Assembly (NCBI GenBank): GCA_024234935.1
Contig: JACKNI010000007.1
Location: 11,454-75,453 of the forward strand
Direction of reading: 5' to 3'
Source of the DNA: Chromatiales bacterium
GTDB taxonomy: Bacteria > Pseudomonadota > Gammaproteobacteria > Steroidobacterales > GCA-2729495
DNA: 64,000 nt
The position numbers were made by a program, and so were the translations under genes. Below the pieces are notes generated by a model that was not told where the DNA came from, did no database searches, and worked only from the letters and a program-made list of their open reading frames with translations. This document shows, piece by piece, positions 44,822 through 64,000 of this stretch (position 1 is its first letter; the number at the start of each line of letters is the position of its first letter).

Positions 44822-45023
44822 TGACTTGAACTCGTTGCTGCAACCCGGGGGCAGGCATGGTACCGAGCCGCTGCAGAGGGCACAAATGGCGGCTGGCATG
44901 GTCGCGGCTGGCAGGGCAAAATGGCGCCCTCAGGCTGCCCGGCCACCGGTCCCAGGCTCGCTGCGTATAACTGAAACCGAACATCCGCGGGCAAACCGGC
45001 CGCGACTACAAATAAAGAGAGCT

Positions 45024-45398: not shown

Positions 45399-45837
45399 CG
45401 AGACGCTGATGCGCGCGGCGCTCGCGCTGGCGCGTCGCGGGCTGCTTGCCGGTGAAGCGCCGGTCGGTGCCTGCATCGCGCAGGACGGGCGGGTGATTGC
45501 CAGCGCGCACAGCGCCGTGGCCGGTGGTCCCGACGCAAGCGCGCATGCCGAGATTCTCGCCATCCGTGCCGCGTGCCGCAGTCTGCGCAGCGCGGCGCTT
45601 GCCGGCTGCGAGTTGTATGTCAGCGTTGAACCCTGTGCCATGTGTCTTGCCGCCTGTCACTACGCCGGGATTGACCAGGTGTTTTTTGCTGCCAGTTTGC
45701 AGGACATGCAGGCGGTCACCGGCCACGAACTGGGTGCGCCGGTACCTCTGTCGATCCGGTTGCACGGCGGTGTGCTCGGTGATGAAGCGCGCGCCATGCT
45801 GGCCGAGTGGGCAGCACAGCGGCAGGTGCGGGTGTAG
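45391..45837 (+). CDS. CMP/dCMP-type zinc deaminase (TadA / guanine deaminase-like)
   Basis: ORF 45340-45837. The likely start is GTG 45391 (overlaps the queD stop) or ATG 45409. HAE...PCAMC zinc signature ([10 protein letters not shown]...[13 protein letters not shown]). Confidence 0.72.
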
Positions 45838-46607
45838 CTGTGGCCGCTGTCTACGACGCCTTCGCCCGCGACTATCAGCGCAGCAAGGCCTCACCGCTGC
45901 GCGCGGCCATCGAAAGCTGGACCATCGATCGCCTGCTCGGTGATATCCGGGGATCCGCGATCTTCGATGCAGGCTGCGGCGACGGCTTTCATGCCCGGCG
46001 ACTGATGGCAAGGGGCGCAGGCCGCATAGCCGGCGTGGACGTTTCGGCGGCGATGATCCGGCTCGCACGCGAGGAGGAGAGCCGGGAGCCGCTGGGCATC
46101 CTGTACCAGTGCTGTGCGGTCGAGGACTTGCCGGAGCTGCCCTGTGCCGGTTACGGAGCAAGCGGTTTCGACATCGTGCTGGCTGCCTATCTGCTGCACT
46201 ACGCGCCATCGGTCGAGGTGCTCGCCCGCATGTGCCAGCGGCTTGCGAACGTACTGAAGCCCGGCGGTCGTCTCGTCGCCCTCGTCGAGAATCCGGACCA
46301 GACGGTGGCCGACTACGCCGGCTATGCGCCCTACGGCTTTGACAAGGTCGCGGCGGAGCCGCGTGCCGAAGCCAGCCGGATCCGCTACTCGCTGGTAGCC
46401 GGGCGGCAGATGATCCGCTTTGATACCTGGTACTACTCGCGCGACAGCTACGAGCGTGTGCTGCGCGACGCCGGCTTCAGCGCGATCGCATGGCACCCGC
46501 TGGAACTCGACCCTGATGCCGGGTCTGCCGGCTACTACGCTGACTATCTGCGTAACCCGCCGGTACTGGGCCTGACAGCCGATTTCCCCGGGATGCGGCG
46601 ATCATGA
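45807..46607 (+). CDS. class I SAM-dependent methyltransferase
   Basis: 266 aa (start uncertain: ATG 45807 or GTG 45843). Motif I IFDAGCGDGFHARRL; post-I RIAGVDVS; LKPGGRLVAL. Its stop overlaps the NRPS start (ATGA at 46604-46607). Confidence 0.75.
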   Translation: MGSTAAGAGVAVAAVYDAFARDYQRSKASPLRAAIESWTIDRLLGDIRGSAIFDAGCGDGFHARRLMARGAGRIAGVDVSAAMIRLAREEESREPLGILYQCCAVEDLPELPCAGYGASGFDIVLAAYLLHYAPSVEVLARMCQRLANVLKPGGRLVALVENPDQTVADYAGYAPYGFDKVAAEPRAEASRIRYSLVAGRQMIRFDTWYYSRDSYERVLRDAGFSAIAWHPLELDPDAGSAGYYADYLRNPPVLGLTADFPGMRRS

Positions 46608-49585
46608 GTACGCTGTTGCGCACACCGCTGCCGCAGTCCGATGCGCCGGATGCATGCCTGTCGCTCAGCCTGCTGGAACGCCTCGCCGCCCACGTGCAGC
46701 TGCGGCCCGACGCGCCGGCAATCGTCTGTGGCGAACAACAGCTGGCTTATGCAGCGCTTGATGCTGCGGCCAACCGGCTTGCGCATCGCCTGCAGGATCT
46801 CGGCGTTGCCCGCGATGTGCCAGTCGGCATCTGTCTCGAGCCCGGAACCGAGCTGCTGGTTGCGATGCTCGCCGTGCTGAAGGCCGGTGGCGCTTACTTG
46901 CCGCTGGATCCGGCCTGGCCTCGCGAACGCCTGCAGCAGATGCTGGGTGTCGTGAATCCGGCGGTGCTGATCAGCTGTGCCCGCCTGCGCGAGCGTTGCC
47001 CGGCCGGCATGCATGAGCTGCTTGATCTCGATCAGGAGCACGCGCGGATTGCGGCATGCAGTGCTGCGGATCCGGCAGTGGAGATCGTTCCGGAGCAGCT
47101 CTGCTACCTGATGTTCACTTCCGGTTCCGGCGGCGCGCCCAAGTGCGTGATGGTCACGCATGGCAATCTCGCCGGGCTGTTTCCGCCGCTCTGCGCGGCG
47201 CTCGAGTTCGGTTCCGATGATGTCTGGAGCTGGTTTCATTCCGCTTCCTTCGGCTTCTCGGTCTGGGAGATCCACGGTGCGCTGCTGCACGGTGGCTGCC
47301 TGCAGGTGGTGCCCGAAGTGGTCCGCAATGCACCCGCTGCACTCGGTGCCTGGATTGCCGAGCGGGGTGTGACGGTCTTCAGCCAGACGCCGTCAGCCCT
47401 GCGCCGGCTGCTCGGCGTGGCACCTTTTCATCAGGCGATCGCCGGCAGCCGGTTGCGTTATCTCGCGCTCAGTGGCGAGGCGCTGCGGCCGGAAGACATC
47501 GCCACCTGGCATCACTACCAGGATGCAGAACGACAACCCTCTGCGCCACGACTGCTCAGCACCTACGCGCTGACCGAGACCGCTGGCCAGGTAACCTTGC
47601 GCATTTACGGCGCAGCTGATTCCGGCAGCGAAGCAGTGCGCAATATCGGCCAGCCCCTCGGCGGTCGTCACGTGCTGGTACTGGATGCTGCCGGCCGGCC
47701 CGTCGCTCCGGGCGAAGCGGGCGAACTGTGGGTGGCCGGTACCTGTGTCGCGGCGGGCTATTTCGGCGACGCATCGCTCACCGCACAGCGCTTCACCACG
47801 CATGTCGTGGCCGGGCAGGGATTGCTGCGCGGTTACCGGACCGGTGACCAGGTGCGGCTGCGCGCTGATGGCGCACTCGAGTATCTGGGCCGTGCCGATA
47901 TGCAGCTCAAGTATCGGGGCTACCGTATCGAGCCTGCGGAAATCGAAGCCGCATTGCGTGGCCACCCGGGCGTACGCGATGCAGCCGTGGCACTGCAGAG
48001 CGATGTGGCCGGCAATCCGCGCCTCACGGCGCACATCGTCAGCGCGGAAACAAAGGCGGATGCAACCGGACTGGAGTTCTGGCCTTCGCTGGGCGCGTAT
48101 GAGGTATACGACGAGTTCCTGTACGGACTGATGAACGCCGAACCGGTGCGGCTGAACGCTTATCGCGCGGCTTTCGCCGGCAGCGTGCCTGGCAAGGCTG
48201 TACTCGATATAGGTACCGGCAGCGATGCTGTGCTGGCGCGCCTGTGTATCGAAGCCGGTGCCCGTCACGTGTATGCGGTTGAAATACTCGAGGCGGCAGC
48301 ACGGCAGGCAGCTGAACTGGTGCGCACGCTGGGGCTCGAAGATCGCATCACCGTTTTGCACGGTGATATTGCAGCCATGGTGCTGCCGGAGCCGGTCGAA
48401 GTGTGTACCCAGGGCATCATCGGCAATATCGGCAGTGCCGATGGCATCGTGGCGGTCTGGAATGCCGCACGCCGCAATTTTGCTGCGGGCTGCGTGCCGG
48501 TCCCGTCCCGTTGCGTCACCCGGCTTGCGCTGATGGAGTTGCCTGCCGCAGCGCGCGAGCGGCCACGTTTTTCGCCGCTTGCCGCCGACTACGTGCGGCG
48601 CATGTTCATGCTGACCGGAAAACCCTTCGATGTGCGTCTCTGCGTGCGCAACGTCAAAGCTGCGGACCTGCTGACCGCAGGTACCGATTTCGAAGTGCTG
48701 GAGTTCCACGGGCCGTTGCCGCCCGGCCACATCGGCAGTGCCGAACTCGAAGTGCGACGTGACGGATACCTGGATGGCTGCCTGCTGTGGACCGTGGTGT
48801 CTGCCGATGCCGTACACACGGTGGACTATCTGCAGGAGCAGCGTGCCTGGCTGCCGGTGTTCGTGCCGATGGCAGAAACCGGCATCACCGTGCATCGTGG
48901 CGATGTCGTGCGCATCAGCTGGCGGGCTTTCAACGAGTCAGATCCGCGCCATCCGGATTACGAGTTGTGCGTGTCCCTGGGCGCGGAGGGCGACAGGCCG
49001 GCGCGCGAGTTCAGGCAGGTGACGCGCCATTCAGGCACCGAGGCGGGTGCGATGCGACTGCATCGCGAACTGCTGGCGGATGTCGGTAGCGAGGATCAGG
49101 TGGTGTCGGTCGACGCCCTGCGAGCCTGGCTCGGCGATCGCGTACCCGAATACATGGTGCCGCAGAGCTGGCTGTTCCTGCCGGAGCTGCCGCTGACGCC
49201 GGGCGGAAAACTCGACCGCGAGGCGCTGCCCGCACCGGGCCGATATCGGCCGCGGCTTGCTGCTGCAGCCATCGCCCCGCGCAATGCCGTGGAGAATGCT
49301 GTTGCCGGACTCTGGGCGCGGGCGCTGGGCCTGGAAGCGATTGGCGTCGAGGACAACTTTTTTGATCTGGGTGGTGACTCGATCACCGCGGTGCAACTCA
49401 CCACGACGACCCAGCGCTGGCTGGATGCGCCGGTACCGCTCGCAGCCCTGTTCGATGCGCCTACGGTGGCCGCGATGTGCCGCCATCTCGAAGCGGCATA
49501 TGCAGCACCGCTTGCGGCCGCACTCGGGCGCGGTGGGGCTCATATGCAGCAAGGCTCGATGGATCGCGAGCACGGCGAGCTATGA
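46604..49585 (+). CDS. NRPS loading protein: interrupted adenylation domain A(MT) + carrier domain
   Basis: 993 aa. A3 FTSGSGGAPK; A4 SFGFSVWE (47249-47269); A7 YRTGD; A8 GRADMQLKYRGYRIEPAEIE. An insert of about 340 aa follows, then A9/A10 VPEYMVP...PLTPGGKLDRE. T domain FFDLGGDSITAVQL (Ser codon 49379-49381). Confidence 0.9.
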   Translation: MSTLLRTPLPQSDAPDACLSLSLLERLAAHVQLRPDAPAIVCGEQQLAYAALDAAANRLAHRLQDLGVARDVPVGICLEPGTELLVAMLAVLKAGGAYLPLDPAWPRERLQQMLGVVNPAVLISCARLRERCPAGMHELLDLDQEHARIAACSAADPAVEIVPEQLCYLMFTSGSGGAPKCVMVTHGNLAGLFPPLCAALEFGSDDVWSWFHSASFGFSVWEIHGALLHGGCLQVVPEVVRNAPAALGAWIAERGVTVFSQTPSALRRLLGVAPFHQAIAGSRLRYLALSGEALRPEDIATWHHYQDAERQPSAPRLLSTYALTETAGQVTLRIYGAADSGSEAVRNIGQPLGGRHVLVLDAAGRPVAPGEAGELWVAGTCVAAGYFGDASLTAQRFTTHVVAGQGLLRGYRTGDQVRLRADGALEYLGRADMQLKYRGYRIEPAEIEAALRGHPGVRDAAVALQSDVAGNPRLTAHIVSAETKADATGLEFWPSLGAYEVYDEFLYGLMNAEPVRLNAYRAAFAGSVPGKAVLDIGTGSDAVLARLCIEAGARHVYAVEILEAAARQAAELVRTLGLEDRITVLHGDIAAMVLPEPVEVCTQGIIGNIGSADGIVAVWNAARRNFAAGCVPVPSRCVTRLALMELPAAARERPRFSPLAADYVRRMFMLTGKPFDVRLCVRNVKAADLLTAGTDFEVLEFHGPLPPGHIGSAELEVRRDGYLDGCLLWTVVSADAVHTVDYLQEQRAWLPVFVPMAETGITVHRGDVVRISWRAFNESDPRHPDYELCVSLGAEGDRPAREFRQVTRHSGTEAGAMRLHRELLADVGSEDQVVSVDALRAWLGDRVPEYMVPQSWLFLPELPLTPGGKLDREALPAPGRYRPRLAAAAIAPRNAVENAVAGLWARALGLEAIGVEDNFFDLGGDSITAVQLTTTTQRWLDAPVPLAALFDAPTVAAMCRHLEAAYAAPLAAALGRGGAHMQQGSMDREHGEL
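48065..49093 (+). other. PRMT-fold SAM methyltransferase domain inserted between A8 and A9 of the loading A domain
   Basis: aa ~488-830: YDEFLYGLMNAEPVRLNAYRAAFAGSVPGKAVLDIGTGSDAVLARLCIEAGARHVYAVEILEAAARQAAELVRTLGLEDRITVLHGDIAAMVLPEPVEV. This parallels the type I PRMT N-terminal helix, motif I and post-I. It is followed by a C-terminal portion of beta-barrel length. Confidence 0.6.
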
Positions 49586-49746
49586 CCATCGCGGAGCTGC
49601 TCGCGGCAACGCGCGCGGCGGGAATCACGCTGCGGGTCGAGCGCGGGCGTCTGCTCTTTGACGCGCCGGCTGGCGCGCTGACCCCGGAACTGCGTCAGGC
49701 CCTCAGCGAACGCAAGCCGGAGCTGCTGGACTATTTCCACAACGGG
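49582..49746 (+). other. TubC-N-like N-terminal docking domain
   Basis: MTIAELLAATRAAGITLRVERGRLLFDAPAGALTPELRQALSERKPELLDYF fits the pattern of TubC-type docking domains (LLxxLxxxGVxLxxxGxxLxxxAPxGxLTxELxxxLxxxKxELL). Confidence 0.6.
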
Positions 49747-52700
49747 AACCCGGCGCCACTCGGCTTTGCACAGCAGAGCCTCTGGTTCCTGCATGAACTC
49801 TATCCGCAGGACACCGGCGCCAGCGAGCAGTTTGCGATCCGTATCGATGGTCCGCTCGATCCGACGCTGCTCGCGCGGGCCTGGCATGCCCTGCTTGCGC
49901 GTCATTCGATACTGCGTACGACTTTCAGTGAAAAGGACGGCCAGGTCTGGCAGGTACCGGCAGCACCGCAGCTGAATGGTCCGCCGCTGTTGCAGGTCAA
50001 TGTCGGTACGGTGCAGTCCGGTCTGCTGGAAATCGCTGCCACAGCGTTGCGTGAGCCCTTCGACCTGCGGCGTGGTCCGCTGCTGAAGCCGCAACTCTGC
50101 CGTATGGCCGACGAGCAGCACGTACTGCTGGTCACGGCACATCACATCATCGCTGACGGGCTGTCGGTTCCGGTCATTCGCGCGGAGCTGGTTGCGCTCT
50201 ATCAGGCACTGCTCGCGGGGAAGCCATCACCGCTGCCACCGCTGCAGCTCGAGTATGCGGACGTGGCGCGTGCGCAGCTGCAGACCGATGCGCAGCATGA
50301 AACCGGCGTGCTGCAGCGCTGGCAGGAGATACTCGCATCGCCGCCGCCTGCGGCCCTGCATGCGCTGGTGCGTCCGCGGCGGGGCACCAAAATCTCCCGG
50401 CGCTCTGCCTTTAGCCTGGAGGCGTCGCTGGCCGACAGGCTGCGTCGACTCGCACGTGACAGCGGCACCACTCCGTATGTCGTGCTGCTGGCCGCGTTTC
50501 GTGTACTGCTGGTCCGTCTGACCGGGCAGCACGATCTGGTGATCGGTACGCCGATGACCCTGCGGGATACGCCCGAGCAGCGCGAGATGATCGGCTGCCT
50601 GGTGAACCCGGTTGCCTTGCGGACGCCGGTCGAACTGCAGGATTCATTTCGCAGTCACCTGTTGCGTGAGCGGGCAATGGTGCTCGAGGCCATGCAGTAC
50701 CGGAATGTGCCTTTTTCGCGGGTAGTGGCTGCCGTCAGCCCGGAGCGAAAACTGGATGAGCATCCGCTGTTCCAGATCCTGTTTTCATGGGAGACCGGTA
50801 TACAGCCGGAACCGGTGGTCATCGCCCCGGCTGATGCTGCGCCTGAGGTGCGCTTTTGCCTCCTGTCCCTGCCGGCCGAACGCGCTTCGTACTTTGACCT
50901 CGAGTGTCTGCTGCGCGATGCGGGTGAAGGGCAGCCGATGGACGGCTATTTCGCCTGGTCGACGGCTGTGCTTGAGGACCTGGTCGGCGCACAACTGGCG
51001 CAGATATACGCAGTGCTGCTTGCTGCAATCATCGACCGTCCGGATGCGCCGATGGCCGGGCTCAGCCTGCTGTCCGAAGTCGCACGCCGGAAGATCCTTC
51101 ATGACTGGAACGATACGGCTGCGCCGTACCCGGAGCGGACATCGTTGCATGACGCCTTTCTTGAGCAGGCCCGTCGCGTGCCGGAGGCGCCGGCGCTGCA
51201 CACCACCACAGGGCTCTGGAGCTACGCCCGGCTTGAGGAGCGCAGCGCAGAGCTGGCGGCCGACCTGACCGCCTGTGGTCTGCAGCCCGGCATGCCGGTG
51301 GGCCTGTGCATGCCGCGCTCGGCCGAAGCTGTCGTTGCGCTGCTCGGTATCCTGCGTGCGGGCGGCGTGATCGTCCCGCTGGATCCGGCCTGGCCGCTGG
51401 CACGTCTGCAGTTTGTCGCCGCCGATGCGGGCGTGCAGATCGTGCTTCGCGACCTGCATCCCTTCCGGCCGGATGCGCCGCTGAAGCCGGCCGTACCGGC
51501 GCCAGCCGACGCTGCAGTGATCCTCTATACCTCGGGCTCCACGGGCATGCCGAAAGGCGCGTTGACCACGCATGCTTCGGCGGTCAATCGTTGCCACTGG
51601 ATGTGGCAGGGCTACGGCTTCGGTGCGGAGGACGTGTTTGCGCTGCGCACCAGTTTCGGGTTTATCGATTCGCTGTGGGAGATCTTCGGCGCGCTCGGTC
51701 ACGGTATCCCGCTGGTGATCGTGCCGGACGATATTGCCGGCGATGCGCTGCGCCTGCCGGACTTCCTGCGCGCTCATGCGGTCACGCACCTGGTGCTCGT
51801 GCCCTCGCTGCTGCGCGCACTGCTCGATGCAATGCCGGCGGGAGGGCTGCCCGCGCTCAGCAGTTGCATCAGCAGCGGCGAGCCGCTGGATCCGGCGCTC
51901 GCGCGGCGTTTCCGCTCGGCTTTTCCCGGCGCGCGGCTGCTGAACACCTATGGCACCTCGGAGATCTGGGATGCCACCTGTCATGAAGTGACCGGGTTGT
52001 CCGCGGCGACGGAGCGTGTGCCGATCGGCCGGCCGGTTGCCAATGCGAGCGTCCATGTACTCGATGCCAACGCCGAGCTGCTGCCGCCGGGCATTCCCGG
52101 CGAGCTGTACGTTGGCGGCATCGGGGTCGGACCCGGCTACTGGCAGCGGCCGGAACTGACAGCGGAGAAGTTCATCACGCTCCGTCTCGCCACGGATGGC
52201 GAGCCGCTACGTCTGTATCGCAGTGGCGATCGCGCGCGCTGGCTTGCTGACGGCCAGATTGAGTGTCTGGGCCGGCTCGATGCCCAGTTCAAGCTGCGCG
52301 GGCTGCGCATCGAGCCGGGCGAGATCGAGAGTGCGCTCACTGCCCATCCGGCCGTCGCCGGCGCCATCGTCACAATCTGCGGAGAGGGCGAGGCCGCGCG
52401 CCTCGTCGCCGGCGTGGTGCGCGCTGCACAGGCGGATACCGGGTCCGATGCAGAACTGTGGTCAGGATTGCGCACACATCTGCGCCGCTTGTTGCCGGCG
52501 CACATGCTGCCGGCCGGCTGGCAATGCCTCGATCAGTTGCCGCTGACGCCGAGCGGAAAGCTGGACCGGCGTGCGTTTGCGGCGCTGTACGGCAACGGGA
52601 GCCGTGTCGAAGTACCGGCCGCCGGTGCAGGGCCGCGTACCGACACCGAGCGCGAGCTTGCAGCGATGTGGTCGGAGGTGTTCGGTGGCAGACACATCGG

Positions 52701-55700: not shown

Positions 55701-57768
55701 CGTGACGCTGCCGGCGCTACCGCTGGGTCCCAACGGGAAGATCGACCGGGCGGCCTTGCCAGAGCCGCAGTGGGACGCACCCGCTTCCGGGCCGATGCCG
55801 GTGAGCGCCCGAACGCCGGTCGAAGAAGTGGTCTGCGCGCTGTTTGCCGAGGTGCTCGGTCACTGTGCCTTCGGTGTACACGATGATTTTTTCGCCTGTG
55901 GTGGCCACTCGCTGCTGGCTACCAGGCTCGTGGCCCGCATCCGCGATGCGCTGCAGAGGGAACTGCCGCTGCGGGTGATCTTCACGATGCCGACGCCGGC
56001 CGGGATCGCCGCGGCACTCGATGACGCGCGGGGCAGCGGACGCGTGCGTACCCCGGAAATGTCGCGCTATCGCCAGCGTCCCGATTCACGGCAGGCCGAC
56101 AGGCCGGCGCCGCTTTCAGCGATGCAGCAGCGGCTGTGGTTTCTCGACCGTCTGCAGCCGGACAGCCGGGCCTGGCACCTGCCCTGGGCGGTGCGTCTGC
56201 GCGGCCGGCTCGATCGCGATGCGCTGCAAGTTGCCGTCGATGCGCTCGTCGCGAGGCATGCCGTGCTGCGCACCCGCTTCGTCGAAGACGATGGTATAGC
56301 CACGCAGCAGGTGCTGAAGCCCGTGGATATCCCGGCTGGCTGGATCAGTGCGGCGTTCCTTGCGCTGAATGGCCGTGACCCGCAACTGGCTGCCGCAGAC
56401 TATCTGCAGGGACTGCACTTTGATCTGGCTTGCGGTCCGTTGTGGCAGCTCCGCGTGCTGGAAATCGCGCCTGATGATCAGCTGCTGGTGCTGGTCATGC
56501 ACCACATCATCGCCGACGGCTGGTCGCTGTCGGTACTGAACCGCGAGCTTGCGATTGCCTATCAGGCGGCGTTGTCCGGCAGCGCGCCCGACTGGAATCC
56601 CTTGCCGCTGCAGTACGCGGACTATGCGCGCTGGCAGGCTGACTGGCTGGCCAGCGGTGAACTGGCACGACAGCTCGATTTCTGGCGCGAGGCCTTGCAG
56701 GGCGCGCCCGCACTGCTGTCGCTGCCCGCCGACCAGCCGCGCGAATCCGCCGACACGGCAACCGGTGCCTGGCATCATTGTCTGCTGCCGTCGCGCAGTT
56801 GCGCCGGTCTCCACGAACTGGCGCGCGCACAGGGCTGCACGCTGTTCATGGTCCTGCTCGCGGCATTCGATGTGCTGCTCGGCCACCATGCCGGCAGCGA
56901 GGATGTGCTGGTCGGCACGCCGCTGGCTGGCCGACCGCACACCGAGCTCGAGGGACTGATCGGCTTCTTCCTCAACACGCTGGTGCTGCGCACGGATTTG
57001 CGCGGCGATCCGGCTTTCAGCGAGCTGCTGGTGCGCGTCCGGCGCGTCGCGCTCGATGCATACGCACATGCCGATGTGCCCTTTGAAAAGCTGGTCGAGG
57101 TGCTGGCACCGCAGCGCTCGCTGAGCCACAGCCCGATCGTGCAGGTGCTGTTCACCTTGCACAACCAGCCGCGCGTGCCGCTGGTGCTGTCCGGGCTCGA
57201 GAGCGAGCCCGTGCCGATCAGCGTCGAGGCTGCGAAGTTTGATCTCAGCGTCCATGTGGCCGAAGACGCGCGCGGACTCGATATCGCATTTGCCTGGCGG
57301 AGTACGCTTTATTCAAGGAAGCGGATCGAGTCACTCGCTGCAGATTTTCTCGTTCTGCTGGAATCCGTCGCCCGGGCGCCGGAAGCACGGCTCTCCAGCC
57401 TGCGGCCGCAGCTGGGTGTGCCGCTGCGCGCTTCTGAAGTGCCGGAAGCAGCCGTGCCCGCCGCATCTGATAATAGCTTGGTACCGCTTGGCGAACTGGA
57501 AGTGCAGCTGGCCGAAATCTGGCAAAGCCTGCTGCCGGTGGCGTCCATCGCGCCGGATGATGATTTCTTCGCCATCGGCGGCCACTCGCTGCTGGCAACG
57601 CGGATGATCGCGCGGATCGCCGCCCGGCTGGGCGTGGAGCTGCCGCTGATCAGCGTCTTTGAAGCGCCGACCATCCGCGGGCTGGCCATGCGCGTGGCGG
57701 CAGCTGAACAGCGCAAGCCGGTCGCGCCGGATGTGATTCCGCGACTGGAGCGTCGGGCAGAAGCATGA
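49582..57768 (+). CDS. NRPS: docking-C-A-T-C-A-T-C-T (2728 aa)
   Basis: ORF 49477-57768; ATG at 49582 overlaps the upstream stop (ATGA). C motifs HHIIADG (50140-50160), QHIITDA (53284-53304), HHIIADG (56500-56520). A3 motifs at 51517-51558 and 54700-54741. Carrier Ser codons at 52735, 55909 and 57586. Confidence 0.92.
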   Translation: MTIAELLAATRAAGITLRVERGRLLFDAPAGALTPELRQALSERKPELLDYFHNGNPAPLGFAQQSLWFLHELYPQDTGASEQFAIRIDGPLDPTLLARAWHALLARHSILRTTFSEKDGQVWQVPAAPQLNGPPLLQVNVGTVQSGLLEIAATALREPFDLRRGPLLKPQLCRMADEQHVLLVTAHHIIADGLSVPVIRAELVALYQALLAGKPSPLPPLQLEYADVARAQLQTDAQHETGVLQRWQEILASPPPAALHALVRPRRGTKISRRSAFSLEASLADRLRRLARDSGTTPYVVLLAAFRVLLVRLTGQHDLVIGTPMTLRDTPEQREMIGCLVNPVALRTPVELQDSFRSHLLRERAMVLEAMQYRNVPFSRVVAAVSPERKLDEHPLFQILFSWETGIQPEPVVIAPADAAPEVRFCLLSLPAERASYFDLECLLRDAGEGQPMDGYFAWSTAVLEDLVGAQLAQIYAVLLAAIIDRPDAPMAGLSLLSEVARRKILHDWNDTAAPYPERTSLHDAFLEQARRVPEAPALHTTTGLWSYARLEERSAELAADLTACGLQPGMPVGLCMPRSAEAVVALLGILRAGGVIVPLDPAWPLARLQFVAADAGVQIVLRDLHPFRPDAPLKPAVPAPADAAVILYTSGSTGMPKGALTTHASAVNRCHWMWQGYGFGAEDVFALRTSFGFIDSLWEIFGALGHGIPLVIVPDDIAGDALRLPDFLRAHAVTHLVLVPSLLRALLDAMPAGGLPALSSCISSGEPLDPALARRFRSAFPGARLLNTYGTSEIWDATCHEVTGLSAATERVPIGRPVANASVHVLDANAELLPPGIPGELYVGGIGVGPGYWQRPELTAEKFITLRLATDGEPLRLYRSGDRARWLADGQIECLGRLDAQFKLRGLRIEPGEIESALTAHPAVAGAIVTICGEGEAARLVAGVVRAAQADTGSDAELWSGLRTHLRRLLPAHMLPAGWQCLDQLPLTPSGKLDRRAFAALYGNGSRVEVPAAGAGPRTDTERELAAMWSEVFGGRHIGVDENFFDAGGHSLLATRIVSRIRTRHAQDFTLREMFAAPTIAALAAALDSRRQSQAAAGLVAAAHDDVVPLSFAQERLWFLDQLDPGSPAYNIAWTVCLSGALDRGALRAALDFLIARHEALRSRFPAVAGRPQLCIDEPGSLGLVELDIAGETELQAALLRHARAPFVLATGPLLRAVLVHRSADEHLLMLAMQHIITDATSNHVLFEELVTSYAAFAAGREPALPPPAIRYADYALWQRRRPPDAGLAADLAWWRAQLAGMPAALELPTDYPRPAEQQFRGAWVRRTLPSGLVRALRALAREQQGTLYMVLLAAFDVLLSRYSGSEDIVVGTPVEGRTERSLEQLVGLFINTLVMRTDLSGDPTFTELLQRVRTVTLEAQAHQDLPFEKLVEALRPARSLSRAPLFQVMFNLIRMPEEQQQVAGLTFRLDRLVDQGVSSFDLTLTASEQGEQVGLIFEYATDLFAVRTVEQLADSCLCLLQGIVECPAQAISRLPLLDEAGRQHLLDDFNPPVLAAGFVPVHQTVAGNALRWPDAPAVSLGGISLRYGELEARANRLAHFLLARGLPAGARIGICLSREPSLLVAVLAVLKAGAAYVPLDPAYPPARLAAMADDADLALLLVDMKTRACFAVDDARLLQPDALQAETDRCAASPPVLRVSADDLAYLLYTSGSTGRPKAVMVTHGNLASALSAWLELYTLQPGESHLQMASVAFDVFSGDWVRALGSGGRLVLCPRETLLEPSALLAVLTHEKIAVAEFVPAVIRLLLAHADAQDLQLPPLRLLIVGSDLWFAAEAAALRARCTSGTRVFNSYGVAEATIDSACLEVGEDMPAAGAVPVGRPLANARLYVVDARGDIVPAGVPGELCIGGAGVAQGYFGQPELSAEKFIADPFAGVPGARLYRSGDRARWRHDGNLELLGRADFQFKLRGFRIEPAEVEARLTEHPAIRHAVVGRRETAAGDACLVAWIVPGDAAVPVPDLRLALQSSLPEHLIPNIFVTLPALPLGPNGKIDRAALPEPQWDAPASGPMPVSARTPVEEVVCALFAEVLGHCAFGVHDDFFACGGHSLLATRLVARIRDALQRELPLRVIFTMPTPAGIAAALDDARGSGRVRTPEMSRYRQRPDSRQADRPAPLSAMQQRLWFLDRLQPDSRAWHLPWAVRLRGRLDRDALQVAVDALVARHAVLRTRFVEDDGIATQQVLKPVDIPAGWISAAFLALNGRDPQLAAADYLQGLHFDLACGPLWQLRVLEIAPDDQLLVLVMHHIIADGWSLSVLNRELAIAYQAALSGSAPDWNPLPLQYADYARWQADWLASGELARQLDFWREALQGAPALLSLPADQPRESADTATGAWHHCLLPSRSCAGLHELARAQGCTLFMVLLAAFDVLLGHHAGSEDVLVGTPLAGRPHTELEGLIGFFLNTLVLRTDLRGDPAFSELLVRVRRVALDAYAHADVPFEKLVEVLAPQRSLSHSPIVQVLFTLHNQPRVPLVLSGLESEPVPISVEAAKFDLSVHVAEDARGLDIAFAWRSTLYSRKRIESLAADFLVLLESVARAPEARLSSLRPQLGVPLRASEVPEAAVPAASDNSLVPLGELEVQLAEIWQSLLPVASIAPDDDFFAIGGHSLLATRMIARIAARLGVELPLISVFEAPTIRGLAMRVAAAEQRKPVAPDVIPRLERRAEA

Positions 57769-60700
57769 GTACCGCGCACTACGTCTTTCCGGCTTCGTTC
57801 GCCCAGCAGCGGCTGTGGTTTCTGGACCAGCTCGAAGGTGCGAGCGCGGTCTACAACCTGAAGATGGCACTGCGACTCTCCGGTCGGCTGGATCACGACA
57901 GCCTGCAGCGCGCCGTCGATGCGGTCGTGGCGAGACATGAATCCTTGCGCACCAGCTTTGCAACGCGCGGCGTCGATGCCGTGCAGCGGGTCGCGAGCCA
58001 GCTTGAAGTACTGGTGCAGACGGCTGAACTGCATGGTGCCAGCGATACCGTGCTGGCGGCAAAGCTGAATGAGCTGGGATCAACGAGTTTTGATCTGCAG
58101 CGCGGGCCCTTGCTGCGTGTACACCTGCTGCGTCTCGATGCAGAGGCCACTGAACATGTGTTGCTGCTGGTGATGCACCATATCGTATCGGATGCCTGGT
58201 CAGCTGGCGTGCTGTACCGGGATCTTGCCGCGTATTACAGCGCTTTCAGTCGCGGCCTTGTTGCACAGCTGCCGGAACTCCCGGTGCAGTACGCCGACTT
58301 CGCGGTCTGGCAGCGCGACTGGCTTGCCGGTGCCGAACTCGAGCGGCAGATGGCTTTCTGGCGCGAGCATCTCGAGGGCGCGCCGCCGCTGCTCGAGCTG
58401 CCGACTGACCGGCCGCGTCCGGTGCTGCAGACCTACCGCGGCAACCGGTTCAGCCGCGCTGTACCCGCGGCGCTCAGCGCCCGGCTGCAGGCGCTCGCTG
58501 CAGAGGAGGGCGTGACGCTCTACATGTTGCTGTTTGCCGCATTCAACCTGCTGCTTGCGCGCTGGTCGGGTCAGTCGGACCTCGTGATCGGTACGCCGAT
58601 TGCGGGACGACGGCGCAGTGAACTCGAGGCGCTGATCGGCTGCTTTGCCAATACGCTTGCCATCCGCACCCGGCTGGAGGGCGCTGAAAGATTCAGCGAG
58701 CTGCTCGCGCGTGTACGCACTGCCACGCTCGGCGCCTTTTCACACCAGGAGCTGCCATTCGAAAAGCTGGTCGAGGTCCTGAAGCCGCCGCGCAATCTTT
58801 CGCACTCGCCGCTGTTCCAGGTGATGTTCATCCTGCAGAACACGCCCTGGGAAGCCGTGGAGTTCGGCGCGCTGGCAGTAAGGCCCGCGGAGATGGATGC
58901 GGCGGATACCGCAAAGTTTGAGCTCACCGTGTCGGTCTCGGAGTTCGAGTCGCAACTCTGGCTGGCGCTCGAGTACAACAGCGATATCTTCGACCGGGGC
59001 ACCATCGAGGGTCTTGCTGCGGGCTACGAGACGCTGCTGTCTGCGATCGTGGCCGATCCGTCTGCATCCCTGTCTGTGCTGCCGGTGCAGGCCGAAGCGG
59101 ACCGGCGACAGCTGCTCGACACGTGGAATGACTACGCTGCGCCCTATGACAGAAACTGCGGCGTCTGGTCGCTGTTTGCTGCCCGGGCGGCGCGCAGTCC
59201 CGGGTCTGTCGCCGCCGAAGCCGATGGTGTGGCGCTGACTTATGCGCAACTGCTCGACCGTGCGGAACAGCTGGCTGCGGCCCTGTACGCCCGCGGCGTG
59301 CGGCCCGGTCAGGCTGTGGCGATCTGCCTGGAGCGCGGCATCGACATGCTGGCGAGTGTGCTCGCGGTGTTGCGCATCGGCGCCCACTATGTGCCCCTGG
59401 ACACGGCGCATCCGTCCGCGCGGCTGGCGTTCATCCTCGAGGATTCCGGCGCCAGCATGCTGGTTGCCGCGCCTGCCCTGGCCGGGAGACTGGCGGATTT
59501 TCGCGGCACCGTGTTCGATCCCGGTACAGCCAGGTCCGGTTCGGTCAGCAGCATTCCGGCGTTCGCGCCGCTGTCCGGCGATGCCCTCGCTTACCTGATC
59601 TATACCTCCGGCTCGACTGGCCAGCCGAAAGGTGTGGCAGTCCCGCAGCAGGCGGTGCTGAATTTCCTGCACAGCATGGCGCGCACGCCGGGCCTCGCGA
59701 CGGATGACCGGCTGCTGGCAGTGACCACGCTGGCCTTCGATATCGCCGTGCTGGAACTCCTGCTGCCGCTTGCCGTCGGTGCAACGACGGTGATTGCCAT
59801 GCGCGATGAACTGGCCGATCCACAGTTGCTGATCCATCGTCTGGCGGGGTCGCGTATCTCCATGATGCAGGCGACGCCGGCACTGTGGCGCAACCTGGTC
59901 GCTGCCGGCTGGACCGGCCAGCCGGATCTGCGCATGCTCTGCGGCGGTGAGTCGCTGGATGCGGACCTGGCCTCTGCGCTGCTCGCACGCGGCGCTGACC
60001 TCTGGAACATGTATGGGCCAACCGAAACCACGGTCTGGTCCTGCTGCGCGCGGATCACGGCGGTTTCCTCAGCGCCGGTACCGGTGGGCCGGCCGATCGC
60101 CAACACGCGCTGCTATGTGCTGGACGCGCAGCGAGAGCCGGTGCCGCGAGGTGTACGCGGCGAGCTGTGGATCGGTGGCGATGGCGTGGCTTGCGGTTAT
60201 CACGCGCGGCCGGAACTCACGGCCGAGCGCTTCCTTGCCGATCCCTTTGCCGGTGTCCCTGCGCGCATGTACCGGACCGGTGACCGTGCACGCTGGCGCA
60301 GCGATGGCGGTCTGGAAATCCTTGGCCGCAGCGATTTCCAGCTCAAGCTGCGCGGCTTTCGCATCGAGCCGGGTGAAATCGAGGCGGCGCTACTTGCGCA
60401 TCCGGCCGTCAGCGCGGCGGTCGTGGTGCTGCGCGATTTTGCCGGCGATCCGCGGCTGGTTGCTTTCATGGTGCCGGCTGGCGCTGACGTCTCGGCCGGG
60501 TTGCTCGTGCGCCATCTGCGCGGCCGTCTGCCCGAATACATGGTGCCGTCTGAATTCGTCTGGCTGCCCGAACTGCCGCTGAACCCGAACGGCAAACTCG
60601 ACCGGGCTTCCTTGCCGGCCGTGTTGCCAACTGGTACCAGGGCAGACAGTGCTGATGCGCCGCTCTCGCCCCTTGAAGTCATGCTGTGCGAGCTGTTTGC

Positions 60701-63700
60701 CACCGTGCTGGGCCGCGACCGTGTCGGCGCAAACGAGGATTTCTTTGCCCTGGGCGGGCACTCGCTGCTCGCCACACAGCTGATTGCGCGGATCCGCGAT
60801 GCCCTGCAGATCGAGCTGCCGCTGAAGGCCCTGTTCATGACGCCGACCGCATCCGGTATTGCCGCCGGCCTGCCGACAGCGCATATCACATCGCCGCCGG
60901 CGCTGCCTGCACCGTCTGCAGTGCACAGGCTGGCGCCGCTTTCACCGGTACAACAGCGGCTGTGGTTTCTGGACCGGTTGCAGCCAGGCAGCCCGGTCTA
61001 CAACCTCGCGTGGACCTTCCGCCTGCGGGGTGTGCTGGATCCAGAGGCCCTGCAGCTCGCCGTAGACGCGCTCGTCGCACGTCATGCGGTGCTGCGTACC
61101 CGCTTTGTGGAAGCCGATGGCGAGCCGCGGCAGCTCATCGACGAGACGCTCGCCGTGCCGGTGAATGTACTGAGCGCGGACCCACCCGCCAATGTAGGCG
61201 ATACCGGGGAGGCCCGACTGAAGACCTGCTTGCAGCTGGTGCGTTTCGACCTCGCGCATGGTCCTCTGCTGCGGGTGTTCGTGCTGCCGGCAGCGAAGGA
61301 CGACCAGGTGCTGGCGATCGTCGTACACCATATCGTCGCCGATGGCTGGTCGCTGGGAATATTGAGTCGCGAGCTGTCGGCGCTCTACAACGCGGCGCTG
61401 GCCGGCCAGTCACCGCATCTGGCAGCATTGCCGCTGCAGTATGCCGATTATGCGATCCGCCAACGTACAGCGCTCGAAGACGGCGAACTCGCACGCCAGC
61501 TGGACTTCTGGCAGACGCAGCTGAAAGATGCGCCGCCGTATCTCGATCTGCCCACCGACCGGCCGCGTCCGGCGCTGAGTACACATCGCGGTGCGCGCTG
61601 CTTCCGCCTGCTCGAGCCGGGGCTGCAATCGGCGCTCAAGTCGCTGGCGCAGGCTGAAGGCTGCACGCTGTTCATGGTCTTGCTTGCTGCTTTCGATGTG
61701 CTGCTCGCGCGTCATGCCGGCAGCGAAGACGTGGTGGTCGGTACCCCGGTAGCGGGCAGGCCGCGTACCGAACTGGAAGGCCTTGTCGGTTTTTTCGTCA
61801 ACACGCTGGTGCTGCGTACAGAGCTGCGCGGCAATCCACGCTTCCGCGAACTGCTGCAGCGGGTAAAAGACGGCACGCTGGCTGCCTGGGCACATGCGGA
61901 CGTGCCCTTTGAACAACTTGTCGAAGTGCTCAAACCACCGCGCAGTACCGGTCGGTCGCCGGTCTTCCAGGTGCTTTTCAACCTGCACAACGAACCGGCC
62001 GGTCGGCTGGAACTGTCTGGTATTGAGGCGACGCCACTGGCGATCGATCGCGGTACCGCGAAGTTCGAGCTGAGCGTGTCGCTCAGCGAGACCACGGCAG
62101 GACTTGCCGTGAGTTTCGAGTACAGCACCGATCTGTTCAACGCTGCATCGATGCAGCGCATGCTGGATGATTTCGCCGCGCTGCTGGCGGCTGTGGTCTC
62201 CAGACCGGATGCGCCGCTGGCCAGTCTGTGTGTTGCTGCACCGCCTGTCGCACGCAGCCTGCCGGAGATTGCGCTCCTGCGTCAGGCGGGTGAGGGCACG
62301 CTTGCAGCAGCGTTTGCTGCGCAACTGCAACAGCGCGCGGCGGCAACGGCAGTTGCCGCATCGGCTGTTGCCGGCAGCAGCGGTGTGGAGTGGAGCTACG
62401 CCGGACTCGATCAGCGGGCCCGGGCAGTGGCGGCGGCACTCATGCAGCGCGGTGTCACACGCGGTACGCACGTCGGCCTGTGGTTCAACCAGGGAGCGGG
62501 GCAGGTGGCGGCGATGCTCGGCGTGCTGCAGGCCGGGGCTGCCTATGTGCCGCTCGACCCGCTCGCACCGGCGGCACGACTTGATGTCGTCGTTCGCGAT
62601 GCCGGTCTGCGCATCGCAGTCAGCGAACGCGCGGCACTCGACAGTCCGACTGGTGCCTGGCTGAGAGAAAGTGCGCTGCAACTGATCGTGCTCGACGAAT
62701 TGCCGGCTTCGCCGCCCGCGGCGCTCACCCTGCTGCCCGGCAGTCCGGACGATGCGGCCTATCTGCTCTACACTTCGGGCACCACCGGTACACCGAAACG
62801 TGTGGCGCAGACCCAGCGCAACGTCCTGCACTACGTGCGCAGCTGGGCGGAAAACCTCGGCCTGGGTCCGGCCGATCGGCTGAGTCTGGTCTCGACCTAC
62901 GGCTACGATGCAGCCGTGCAGGATATCTTTGGCGCACTGCTGAGCGGTGCAGCTGTATATCCGCTCGACATCCGGCGACTCGATCGCGAGACGCTGCTTG
63001 ACCGCATCGCCGACGCAGGTCTCAGCGTCCTGCACGCCACACCCACCGTGTACCGCTATCTGTTCGGCAGTCACGTCGCGTGCCGCCAGGACCTGTCGCG
63101 CGTGCGGCTCGTTGTACTCGGCGGTGAGACAGCGCGTCGTGCCGACTTCGAGCTGTTCAGGTCGCGCTTTCGCAGGGGTGCGCAGTTCGTCAACGGCTAT
63201 GGCCTGACCGAAGCGACGGCAGTGCTGCAGTGTTTTTCGACGCATGACACCCAGCCTTACGGCAATGTGCTGTCGCTGGGCTGGCCGGTCGGTGACCAGC
63301 GCGTGCTGCTGCTCGACGAGCAGGATCAGCCGGCTGGCATCAGCGGCGAAGTGGTTATCGAGAGCCGCTATGTACCCGCCGGACGTCTGCACACCGGGGA
63401 TCTGGCGCGCTGGCTGCCGGATGGCAGTCTGGCCTGGCTGGGCCGGCGCGACGATCAGCTGAAGCTCGGCGGTATTCGTATCGAGCCCGGGGAAGTTGAG
63501 GCCGCGCTGCGCACGCATCCGGCCCTGGCCGCTGTTGCCGTGGTCCTGCATGCCGAGCCCGCCAGCGAGCCGATGCTGGTTGCGTACTGCAGTCTGCGCA
63601 GGGCGGCGACCCTGCCGACACCAGCCGAACTGCGCGCTCATCTCAAACCGCTCTTGCCGGATCCGCTGCTGCCGGCTCACTATGTTGCCGTCGACAGCCT

Positions 63701-64000
63701 GCCGCAGCTGCCGAACGGCAAGCTGGATCGCCGTGCGCTGGCCGGCCGGCCGTTGTCGCGACCGGCAGCAACCGGCAGGGCGGCGATCGCCGAGGGCGAT
63801 GTCGAAGCCACGCTGACCGAGCTCTGGCAGACGCTGCTGAAACGGGAGGATATCGGCCCGGAAGACGATTTTTTTGCGCTCGGCGGACATTCGCTGCTGG
63901 CCACCCGCCTGATCGCCAGGCTCCGCGACCGGTTTGGTGTCGAGCTGCCGCTGATCAGTATCTTCGAGACGCCGACCATCCGCGGGCTGGCAGTCGTCGT
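57765..64000 (+). CDS. NRPS: C-A-T-C-A-T-... (partial, continues past the right edge)
   Basis: Not in the ORF track because no stop lies in the window. ATG 57765 overlaps the upstream stop (ATGA). MSTAHYVFPASFAQQRLWFLDQ... C motifs HHIVSDA (58176-) and HHIVADG (61326-). A3 LIYTSGSTGQPKG (~59590) and LLYTSGTTGTPKR (~62760). Carrier Ser codons at 60762 and 63891. Confidence 0.9.
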   Translation, partial: MSTAHYVFPASFAQQRLWFLDQLEGASAVYNLKMALRLSGRLDHDSLQRAVDAVVARHESLRTSFATRGVDAVQRVASQLEVLVQTAELHGASDTVLAAKLNELGSTSFDLQRGPLLRVHLLRLDAEATEHVLLLVMHHIVSDAWSAGVLYRDLAAYYSAFSRGLVAQLPELPVQYADFAVWQRDWLAGAELERQMAFWREHLEGAPPLLELPTDRPRPVLQTYRGNRFSRAVPAALSARLQALAAEEGVTLYMLLFAAFNLLLARWSGQSDLVIGTPIAGRRRSELEALIGCFANTLAIRTRLEGAERFSELLARVRTATLGAFSHQELPFEKLVEVLKPPRNLSHSPLFQVMFILQNTPWEAVEFGALAVRPAEMDAADTAKFELTVSVSEFESQLWLALEYNSDIFDRGTIEGLAAGYETLLSAIVADPSASLSVLPVQAEADRRQLLDTWNDYAAPYDRNCGVWSLFAARAARSPGSVAAEADGVALTYAQLLDRAEQLAAALYARGVRPGQAVAICLERGIDMLASVLAVLRIGAHYVPLDTAHPSARLAFILEDSGASMLVAAPALAGRLADFRGTVFDPGTARSGSVSSIPAFAPLSGDALAYLIYTSGSTGQPKGVAVPQQAVLNFLHSMARTPGLATDDRLLAVTTLAFDIAVLELLLPLAVGATTVIAMRDELADPQLLIHRLAGSRISMMQATPALWRNLVAAGWTGQPDLRMLCGGESLDADLASALLARGADLWNMYGPTETTVWSCCARITAVSSAPVPVGRPIANTRCYVLDAQREPVPRGVRGELWIGGDGVACGYHARPELTAERFLADPFAGVPARMYRTGDRARWRSDGGLEILGRSDFQLKLRGFRIEPGEIEAALLAHPAVSAAVVVLRDFAGDPRLVAFMVPAGADVSAGLLVRHLRGRLPEYMVPSEFVWLPELPLNPNGKLDRASLPAVLPTGTRADSADAPLSPLEVMLCELFATVLGRDRVGANEDFFALGGHSLLATQLIARIRDALQIELPLKALFMTPTASGIAAGLPTAHITSPPALPAPSAVHRLAPLSPVQQRLWFLDRLQPGSPVYNLAWTFRLRGVLDPEALQLAVDALVARHAVLRTRFVEADGEPRQLIDETLAVPVNVLSADPPANVGDTGEARLKTCLQLVRFDLAHGPLLRVFVLPAAKDDQVLAIVVHHIVADGWSLGILSRELSALYNAALAGQSPHLAALPLQYADYAIRQRTALEDGELARQLDFWQTQLKDAPPYLDLPTDRPRPALSTHRGARCFRLLEPGLQSALKSLAQAEGCTLFMVLLAAFDVLLARHAGSEDVVVGTPVAGRPRTELEGLVGFFVNTLVLRTELRGNPRFRELLQRVKDGTLAAWAHADVPFEQLVEVLKPPRSTGRSPVFQVLFNLHNEPAGRLELSGIEATPLAIDRGTAKFELSVSLSETTAGLAVSFEYSTDLFNAASMQRMLDDFAALLAAVVSRPDAPLASLCVAAPPVARSLPEIALLRQAGEGTLAAAFAAQLQQRAAATAVAASAVAGSSGVEWSYAGLDQRARAVAAALMQRGVTRGTHVGLWFNQGAGQVAAMLGVLQAGAAYVPLDPLAPAARLDVVVRDAGLRIAVSERAALDSPTGAWLRESALQLIVLDELPASPPAALTLLPGSPDDAAYLLYTSGTTGTPKRVAQTQRNVLHYVRSWAENLGLGPADRLSLVSTYGYDAAVQDIFGALLSGAAVYPLDIRRLDRETLLDRIADAGLSVLHATPTVYRYLFGSHVACRQDLSRVRLVVLGGETARRADFELFRSRFRRGAQFVNGYGLTEATAVLQCFSTHDTQPYGNVLSLGWPVGDQRVLLLDEQDQPAGISGEVVIESRYVPAGRLHTGDLARWLPDGSLAWLGRRDDQLKLGGIRIEPGEVEAALRTHPALAAVAVVLHAEPASEPMLVAYCSLRRAATLPTPAELRAHLKPLLPDPLLPAHYVAVDSLPQLPNGKLDRRALAGRPLSRPAATGRAAIAEGDVEATLTELWQTLLKREDIGPEDDFFALGGHSLLATRLIARLRDRFGVELPLISIFETPTIRGLAVV

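Follow-up and report, generated by a model that had tools for sequence, protein, structure and literature searches.

What starter unit primes a nonribosomal peptide synthetase (NRPS) whose loading adenylation (A) domain has Gly in place of Asp at position 235, and what is the role of the small genes packed directly ahead of it, are the questions raised by a locus in a 64,000-nucleotide stretch of DNA from a Chromatiales bacterium (GenBank assembly GCA_024234935.1, contig JACKNI010000007.1, positions 11,454 to 75,453 of the forward strand), which is hereafter called the window. The region is a real and intact three-protein NRPS of an uncultured gammaproteobacterium, almost complete within the window, and its genes form a tightly packed operon composed of a queD-like gene, a gene for a cytidine deaminase (CDA)-fold deaminase, a gene for an S-adenosylmethionine (SAM)-dependent methyltransferase (MT), and the synthetase genes NRPS1, NRPS2 and NRPS3. 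What tells most about the cluster is the queD-deaminase-MT cassette rather than the NRPS. The architecture and functionality of the assembly line are considered close to certain, a pterin- or lumazine-type acid is regarded from the gene context as its moderately probable starter, and the two taken jointly are held with the same moderate confidence as the starter.

The upstream genes were placed from the genes called on a contig with an identical NRPS1 (L001, GCA_020442885.1). The first gene of the operon (45024..45398, + strand) encodes a queD-like 6-carboxy-tetrahydropterin synthase, which scores 104 bits against a cut-off of 89 for TIGR03367 and has the Cx3HGH motif (CSRLHGH); it is followed by the CDA-fold zinc deaminase (45373..45837, +; Pfam dCMP_cyt_deam_1), with intact zinc motifs HAE and PCAMC, and by the stand-alone class I SAM MT (45840..46607, +; Pfam Methyltransf_25, _11 and _31), and all junctions between the cassette genes are overlapping or nearly abutting. 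At the other end of the operon, folE, which passes the equivalog cut-off of TIGR00063, was observed directly 3' of NRPS3 in the loci L002, L005, L092 and L096. FolE converts GTP to dihydroneopterin triphosphate, QueD yields 6-carboxy-5,6,7,8-tetrahydropterin, which is a carboxylic acid, and CDA-fold deaminases act on amino-pyrimidine-type rings. Genes for a route to the 6-carboxylate by aldolase, oxidoreductase and aldehyde dehydrogenase were not found in the operon, which has a QueD equivalog instead.

The NRPS1 protein is a loading module in which an A core (46688-48013), an insert with a protein arginine methyltransferase (PRMT) type of fold (48020-49099; 360 residues, residues 473-832), the A9/A10 region (49106-49219) and a thiolation (T) or carrier domain with the motif GGDSI (49298-49489) follow one another on the + strand. 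The catalytic motifs of the loading A domain are present in variant form (FTSGSGGAPK, STYALTE, YRTGD and PGGKLDR) and are invariant in 24 family members. The codes of the A domains were obtained by alignment to the GrsA-PheA pocket positions, with a reference sequence whose numbering reproduces DAWTIAAICK, and the loading domain has the code GFWSASTAQK, in which Gly replaces Asp at position 235, again invariantly in the 24 members. In amino-acid-activating A domains, Asp235 binds the alpha-amino group of the substrate.

The insert is located between motifs A8 and A9, flanked by GRADMQLKYRGYRIEPAEIE and LPEYMVP. Its SAM motif VLDIGTG is present, the acidic residues of the Rossmann domain are conserved, its catalytic residues are invariant in the 24 family members, and at the sequence level it matches PRMT6 (phmmer E = 7e-15). 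A model of the insert, built with AlphaFold2 from a 50-sequence alignment (pLDDT 89.4), was superposed by Foldseek on PRMT6, Hmt1 and CARM1, with an aligned length of about 335 columns that takes in the beta-barrel, a best E of 1.4e-23 and TM values of 0.63-0.78 for the top 50 matches. The embedded MT is predicted from this model to have the PRMT fold, with a Rossmann SAM domain and a beta-barrel. As judged by eye on the alignment, the double-E loop with which PRMTs bind the arginine guanidinium (SEWMGY...E) is replaced by TQGIIGNIGSADG, where Q603 and D613 are invariant in the family. A related PRMT-fold insert (38% identity) was observed in an Ignavibacteriaceae NRPS (L007 178-7803), where the host is an elongation A domain that keeps Asp235. 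LynB3 of lyngbyapeptin B biosynthesis similarly harbors an O-MT inside an interrupted A domain, described as resembling arginine methyltransferases, and TioS and ColG have been cited beside it as interrupted A domains with an embedded side-chain MT (PMC10127204). L007 shows that inserts of this kind also occur outside the loading-module family, and L007 and LynB3 together show that they are not specific to pterins; the PRMT fold was also considered as evidence for a guanidine-like (pterin) methyl acceptor, and this argument is weakened by the same two cases. The insert would signal side-chain methylation of a tethered substrate, not one particular substrate.

Members of the NRPS1 family were detected almost only in metagenomes and metagenome-assembled genomes labelled Gammaproteobacteria, Chromatiales or Porticoccaceae, and the closest proteins from cultured organisms are 37–45% identical. 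A scan of a genome collection with the NRPS1 family alignment was dominated by the generic carrier motif D[ND]FF[DA]LGGD and returned as true members only L006 and L007, and L092, L096 and L131 were recovered by a local tblastn screen of metagenome matches to a 96-residue L087 NRPS3 fragment, most of which were generic condensation (C) domains. Conservation of the cassette across lineages was observed: the order queD-deaminase-MT-A(MT)T beside a divergent F420 operon in L090 (NRPS1 58% identity), and the same layout in L006 (47%); the cassette with a divergent F420 operon, and with a Mer-like luciferase-like monooxygenase (LLM) gene between npdG and queD, in L087 (46%); folE directly after protein 3 in L092 (insert 62% identity), where proteins 1 and 2 are fused and dock-free; folE after the final NRPS gene in L096, with a beta-lactamase-fold gene adjoining; and, in L086, A(MT)-T, deaminase and MT in one polypeptide (P0082), adjoined by a PTPS-family (queD-like) gene and two C-A-T-thioesterase (TE) synthetases. 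The P0082 protein (L086 10001-14431) has 1476 residues in the order A(PRMT-MT)-T-deaminase-methyltransferase, and L086 carries a shortened version of the pathway, with thioesterases of the conventional kind. From this recurrence across loci, the core of the system consists of the loading module together with queD, the deaminase and the MT, with folE at the far end; F420 genes accompany it often but not always.

The pterin-type starter is favored because the loading A domain lacks Asp235, the cassette is syntenic, the P0082 fusion exists and a fungal precedent is available in the plm cluster, and the deaminase and MT that follow the carrier within P0082 suggest that tailoring takes place on it. 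The same observations bear on an unrelated non-amino acid (aryl, keto, hydroxy or fatty) as the starter, with queD, folE and the deaminase gene as mere cofactor or queuosine neighbors and with the F420 genes serving LLM enzymes of primary or catabolic metabolism. Absence of Asp235 shows only that the alpha-amino group is lacking and would suit such a substrate as well, but the queD-deaminase-MT-A(MT)-T order is kept at 46–62% identity with overlapping or nearly abutting junctions; QueD passes a queuosine equivalog model, but folE is the last gene of the operon in four loci, which represent at least three lineages. Moreover, although PRMT-fold inserts also occur in ordinary amino-acid A domains and the four LLM genes of the window are scattered over it, as this explanation would expect, it is not obvious what a CDA-fold deaminase would do to a fatty or aryl acid, and both the deaminase and the MT are covalently attached behind the carrier in P0082. 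An unrelated starter is thus rated unlikely.

Another candidate is 7-carboxy-7-deazaguanine (CDG) or a different 7-deazapurine acid, for which FolE and QueD would make CPH4, a housekeeping QueE would convert this to CDG, and the NRPS1 A domain would activate the CDG, whose ring is then deaminated and methylated. The 7-deazapurine pathway begins with FolE and QueD as its first two enzymes, both of which pass equivalog cut-offs here, and CDG, being a carboxylic acid that has an amino-pyrimidinone ring, would be a fitting substrate for a CDA-fold deaminase and for an A domain that lacks Asp235; however, no QueE- or QueC-like gene is present in the window operon or in the gene lists of L002, L005, L006, L086, L087, L090 and L092 (eight loci examined), even though FolE and QueD are, and the sole nearby radical SAM gene encodes a bona fide FO synthase. 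Since there is no local QueE, the CDG route would depend on a distant housekeeping one, and a starter of this kind is judged decidedly improbable, leaving the pterin- or lumazine-type acid as the preferred reading.

The assembly line that would extend this starter is encoded on the + strand by NRPS1 (46604..49585; 993 aa, called from Pfam and motifs), NRPS2 (49582..57768; 2728 aa, likewise from Pfam and motifs) and NRPS3 (57765..64000; 2078 aa visible and about 2109 aa in orthologues, from translation and Pfam). The open frames comprise 993, 2728 and at least 2078 codons, none of them interrupted by a stop, no stop or frameshift was found across the 5.8 thousand residues of NRPS reading frame, and the encoding DNA has about 66% G+C. 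An exact look-up of NRPS2 returned no record. A first-pass annotation of the window had described a translationally coupled NRPS assembly line with the order A(MT)-T in the first protein, dock-C-A-T-C-A-T-C-T in the second and C-A-T-C-A-T in the third, and both the coupling and the order are borne out by the overlaps and by Pfam and motif mapping. Its three ATGA stop/start overlaps at 46604-46607, 49582-49585 and 57765-57768 are all seen in the sequence, including the first, by which the upstream MT gene is coupled to NRPS1; its count of at least five A, five C and six carrier domains agrees with the 5 A, 5 C and 6 T domains mapped by motif; the GGDSI variant on the loading carrier and GGHSL elsewhere were recovered as one GGDSI and five GGHSL among the six PP-binding domains; and the TubC-N-like dock at the start of NRPS2 corresponds to Pfam PF18563 TubC_N at residues 3-53, with 55.2 bits against a cut-off of 26. 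Two details were revised. The upstream MT most likely starts at 45840, according to the gene call in L001, and not at the GTG at 45807; and the third gene does leave the window as described, but only about 31 of its codons remain beyond the edge, without further modules, because its 12 orthologues (78–91% identity) are 2109–2127 aa long and end in the sixth T domain and a conserved tail, ...AAIGRQARRPLP. The end of the cluster accordingly lies outside the window, as had been proposed, since the NRPS3 orthologues extend about 31 residues past the edge and are then followed by folE.

The Pfam matches comprise AMP-binding, PP-binding and weak methyltransferase matches in NRPS1; TubC_N, three Condensation, two AMP-binding and three PP-binding domains in NRPS2; and two Condensation, two AMP-binding and two PP-binding domains in NRPS3. 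In NRPS2, the TubC_N dock (49588-49740) is followed by C1 (49747-51081), A1 (51139-52581), T1 (52633-52860), C2 (52894-54231), A2 (54289-55767), T2 (55804-56031), C3 (56104-57426) and T3 (57487-57714); NRPS3 has C1 (57777-59129), A1 (59172-60620), T1 (60663-60890), C2 (60927-62264), A2 (62352-63749) and T2 (63792-63998), all on the + strand. A complete C-A-T set is not present in every elongation module, as module 4, which ends in T3 of NRPS2, is C-T only and without an A domain. The A3, A5, A7, A8 and A10 motifs, or conservative variants of them, and the A10 lysine (Lys517) are present in all five A domains. Four of the five C domains exhibit canonical or near-canonical HHxxxDG active sites (HHIIADG twice, HHIVSDA and HHIVADG), and NRPS2 C2 has QHIITDA, in which the second, catalytic His is kept; this variant is conserved in the close clade, and L087 has HHIVTDG. 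The C1 motifs of all five C domains are LCL-like by eye. NRPS2 C1 was also considered as a lipo-initiation starter C domain and rejected, its best PDB matches being the ordinary elongation C domains of Txo1 and Txo2. The NRPS1 tail ends in ...REHGEL, and the terminal ...GEL-COOH is conserved in 20 of the 24 family members, with the close variants GEV, GEI and GDL in the other four. The order NRPS1 then NRPS2 is confirmed by L092, where the two proteins are fused without a dock.

The extender A domains differ in their codes. The code of NRPS2 A1, IDWVIST(W)DK, has its Asp shifted to position 236 and resembles the beta-alanine signature VDWVISLADK; the code of NRPS3 A1, DILQ(L)GMVWK, is close to the glycine signature DILQLGLIWK; and the code of NRPS3 A2, DAQHVGGAVK, is not known to match any signature. 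Literature searches for the beta-alanine, glycine and DAQHVG codes found no confirmation of them. The code of NRPS2 A2, DVGEIGSIDK, is identical to one quoted as an ornithine signature (PMC3992020). The best reading of the predicted chain is cap-(beta-Ala-like)-Orn-X-Gly-X, where Orn is ornithine.

The residue at module 4 can be approached through L087, whose second synthetase has 3239 residues and a complete C-A-T at this module (19528-22644). The A domain of this module has the code DAQHVGGMGK, near that of NRPS3 A2, a weak Pfam score (189 bits) and a degenerate A3 motif with PQG for PKG, and looks like an intermediate stage of A-domain loss. Within the window, the domains closest to NRPS2 C3 and T3 are those of the last module, at 56% identity for C and 67% for T, and L090 also carries a C-T module. 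On the simplest reading, modules 4 and 6 would use the same substrate, and the redundant A domain of module 4 would have decayed and then been deleted in the clade of the window. In that case both carriers could be served by the last A domain, and the chances that it charges T3 in trans are put at about even; a stand-alone A domain encoded elsewhere in the genome is another possible source.

These features could also be taken as signs of a line that is decaying or partly inactive, with the A-less module, the QH motif of C2 and the short last A domain as scars and with a truncated product or none. The A domain of module 4 has indeed been lost relative to L087, C2 has QHIITDA instead of HHxxxDG, the last A domain is about 27 residues short between A6 and A7, and there is no TE; but all three oddities are conserved in orthologues at 78–91% identity, the 27-residue deletion between A6 and A7 of NRPS3 A2 being identical in at least six close orthologues (P0121-P0126), and neither the second, catalytic His of C2 nor any carrier Ser has been lost. 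The ratios of nonsynonymous to synonymous substitution rates (dN/dS), determined by the Nei-Gojobori method against the L002 and L005 orthologues, range from 0.07 to 0.31 for every domain (0.09–0.31 in NRPS2 and 0.07–0.29 in NRPS3), with 0.20–0.25 for C2, 0.11–0.25 for C3-T3 and 0.12–0.13 for the shortened last A domain, which is among the lowest values. The low dN/dS therefore indicates that the NRPS line is maintained by selection, and with a frame of 5.8 thousand residues free of stops and frameshifts, decay is considered very improbable and the line is taken to be working.

The release of the product was examined in the window and in orthologous loci. The first-pass annotation had noted no epimerase, thioesterase, reductase or MbtH-like gene, and this stood: no epimerization (E) domain was found by Pfam in the NRPS proteins, and a motif search of all window frames returned no MbtH, type II TE or reductase. 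The same three motif types were absent from every frame of the L002, L005 and L087 loci, and no TE, reductase (R), E or MbtH gene lies 3' of NRPS3 in L002 and L005. A terminal release domain (TE, R or terminal C) was not found either, as the NRPS3 orthologues end in T and the 31-residue tail. In L002 (NRPS3 91%) and L005 (80%), NRPS3 is followed by folE, a multihaem cytochrome c gene and an EamA transporter gene, with a hydrolase gene on the opposite strand. The cytochrome, of 327 residues and encoded between folE and the EamA gene (L002 17002-17985, L005 17029-18012), resembles subunits of membrane-bound sugar/alcohol dehydrogenases (PDB 8hdd_B, E = 1.6e-32). The hydrolase is a beta-lactamase-fold serine hydrolase (L002 18916-20067, L005 18945-20096 and L096 4079-5284, all on the - strand) with Lsa45, NylB and ClbP as its best PDB matches; it stays near folE in two different gene arrangements and could serve release, maturation or resistance. 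Its assignment as a SurE-type offloading cyclase was tried and rejected, as no SurE was matched at E < 0.001 and the E domain and D-residue logic of such systems are absent.

The first-pass annotation had also expected a product not closely related to a textbook lipopeptide or siderophore, and this agrees with the lack of a characterized close homologue and with the 37–45% identity of the nearest cultured relatives. A siderophore was considered separately and rejected; ornithine is present in the predicted chain, but no hydroxylase, acyl- or formyltransferase or TonB-dependent receptor gene was found in the searched regions.

A complete F420 biosynthesis operon is divergent to the NRPS operon in this gammaproteobacterial genome, all of its genes being on the - strand: npdG/fno for the NADPH-dependent F420 reductase (44141..44821; TIGR01915 196 bits against a cut-off of 150); cofE for the F420-0:gamma-glutamyl ligase (43373..44134; Pfam F420_ligase, E = 1.1e-75); cofD for the 2-phospho-L-lactate transferase (42414..43376; Pfam CofD, E = 5.5e-40); cofC for the guanylyltransferase (41736..42410; Pfam CofC, E = 6.9e-21); and, as the distal gene, fbiC for the bifunctional FO synthase CofGH (39349..41739; NF006687 1105 bits against 1018; Pfam Radical_SAM and CofH_C). 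Scanned for promoters and terminators, the intergenic region between the two operons (44700-45200) yielded none. Four lineages (the window, L006, L087 and L090), with loading proteins 46–100% identical, have the F420 operon next to the cassette in divergent orientation. Four genes for LLM oxidoreductases are present in the window, at 2462-3502 (-), 25144-26196 (+), 26249-27259 (+) and 29585-30598 (+); of the three scanned against NCBIfam, one passes the F420-dependent TIGR03559 and two best match Mer below its cut-off, and the gene at 2462-3502 has a Pfam LLM match only. The Mer-like LLM gene of L087, at 7030-8070 (-), separates npdG from queD, and beside fbiC in L006 there is a 67%-identical copy of the gene at 26249-27259. 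Mer is the F420-dependent methylene-tetrahydromethanopterin reductase and has a pterin substrate. From synteny, an action of the F420 operon and the Mer-like LLM enzymes on the pterin ring is possible, though on the doubtful side.

Further upstream, the window contains rdgC, a pyrroloquinoline quinone (PQQ) dehydrogenase gene, hemE, the LLM genes and an MSHA-type pilus cluster. The type II secretion/MSHA-type pilus set (11661-19218, -) comprises a secretin, a TPR protein, a T2SSE ATPase with MshEN, and T2SSF; together with an OmpA-family gene at 19961-21052, it appears unrelated to the NRPS. In addition, a 530-residue protein with APH phosphotransferase and AAA_33 kinase domains is encoded at 35087-36679 (-), and two open reading frames of 421 and 399 aa, at 37514-38779 (-) and 32355-33554 (+), are without a Pfam or NCBIfam match and may be spurious, the DNA being G+C-rich.

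A working scheme for the pathway can be proposed from these data, in which FolE would convert GTP to dihydroneopterin triphosphate and the QueD homologue would form 6-carboxy-tetrahydropterin from it. The A domain of NRPS1, lacking Asp235, would then adenylate the heteroaryl 6-carboxylate, or an oxidized or deaminated form of it, and load it onto the GGDSI carrier, where the deaminase, the stand-alone MT and the PRMT-fold insert would turn the carrier-bound pterin into a methylated lumazine-type cap. The TubC_N dock of NRPS2 would bind the conserved ...GEL tail of NRPS1 and so fix the order of the two proteins; NRPS2 would add a beta-alanine-like residue and then ornithine, and hold a third residue, X, on T3, which would be charged in trans by the last A domain; and NRPS3 would add a glycine-like residue and then X again. 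Release would proceed via a factor not encoded as an NRPS domain, and the pterin ring may owe its redox state to the F420 operon and to Mer-like, F420-dependent LLM oxidoreductases.

Several observations weigh against this scheme. The pterin assignment is drawn from gene context, and the code GFWSASTAQK is unlike the fungal pterin code DVMVLLMITK. The folE gene lies outside the window and is seen in orthologous loci only; QueD and FolE are also queuosine and folate enzymes, and queD and folE could be housekeeping copies. PRMT-fold inserts are not specific to pterins, occurring with Asp235 in L007 and as an O-MT in LynB3. The beta-alanine and glycine reference codes were not found in the literature searched, and no release enzyme was identified. 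Moreover, F420 genes are absent within 10 kb in L086, and the four LLM genes of the window could use F420 for unrelated chemistry. The wider proposal, that the locus represents the first bacterial family of pteridine-acid-primed nonribosomal peptides, with a QueD shunt, on-carrier deamination and methylation and F420-set redox, widespread in uncultured Gammaproteobacteria and with several variants of the downstream assembly line, is plausible but somewhat short of an even prospect.

Should the pterin- or lumazine-type starter be true, the locus would add to the fungal pathway another, shorter route to pteridine-capped peptides that evolved independently, the first in bacteria, in which QueD replaces the fungal aldolase and oxidase steps; should the starter be something else, it would be one more orphan NRPS cluster. 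The combination of queD, deaminase, MT and an A(PRMT)-T module with Gly235 and a ...GEL tail provides a sequence handle for mining uncultured Gammaproteobacteria, and the locus poses questions of enzymology concerning on-carrier tailoring, recharging of an A-less module by a paralogous A domain, and TE-free release. A conserved F420 link would, in addition, extend the role of F420 in the secondary metabolism of Proteobacteria.

The single components of the system have known counterparts: NRPS lines and interrupted A domains have been described before, as have TubC docking and A-less modules. A PRMT-type insert in an interrupted A domain is already known from LynB3, with which NRPS1 shares a SAM MT between A8 and A9 that is arginine-methyltransferase-like; on the other hand, the host A domain of NRPS1 is a loading domain without Asp235, in distinction to interrupted A domains of the LynB3 type, and its insert has an invariant Q...D in place of the double-E loop. 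The predicted docking corresponds to the TubC-type beta-hairpin system (PF18563), with an N-terminal TubC_N above the gathering threshold on NRPS2 and a short conserved tail on NRPS1, and differs from it in that the donor motif ...(R/E)xxGEL is here defined by conservation alone and in that some relatives fuse the two proteins instead of docking them. Bacterial pteridine genes combined with NRPS-type adenylation/thiolation enzymology are shared with the Photorhabdus pepteridines (PMC5384830), where, going by their description, a single NRPS-like enzyme takes the place of the multimodular line observed here. A bacterial QueD/PTPS-NRPS system was not found in the literature searches, nor a described bacterial NRPS family that couples a loading module to queD, a CDA-fold deaminase, methyltransferases, folE and an F420 operon.

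A methylated pterin- or lumazine-type acid as a building block has so far been shown only in a fungal pathway, that of the penilumamide (plm) cluster of Aspergillus flavipes, whose product is a lumazine-capped NRPS tripeptide and in which GTP cyclohydrolase I, and a deaminase and two methyltransferases for the 1,3-dimethyl-lumazine, are encoded beside an A domain that activates pterin-6-carboxylate with the code DVMVLLMITK (PMC10549243). The locus described here shares with plm a GTP cyclohydrolase I copy (the folE of the orthologous loci), a deaminase, two methyltransferase activities, a dedicated loading A-T module, here predicted for a heteroaryl 6-carboxylate, the absence of a TE, and one module outside simple colinearity. 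The two differ in the origin of the 6-carboxylate, which in the fungus is produced via dihydroneopterin aldolase, oxidoreductases and aldehyde dehydrogenase and here, as predicted, by a single QueD homologue; in the unrelated A codes of PlmA (DVMVLLMITK) and NRPS1 (GFWSASTAQK); in the embedding of one MT in the A domain, the linked F420 genes and the bacterial host on our side; and in the length of the peptide, which is predicted to have five residues here and has two in plm.

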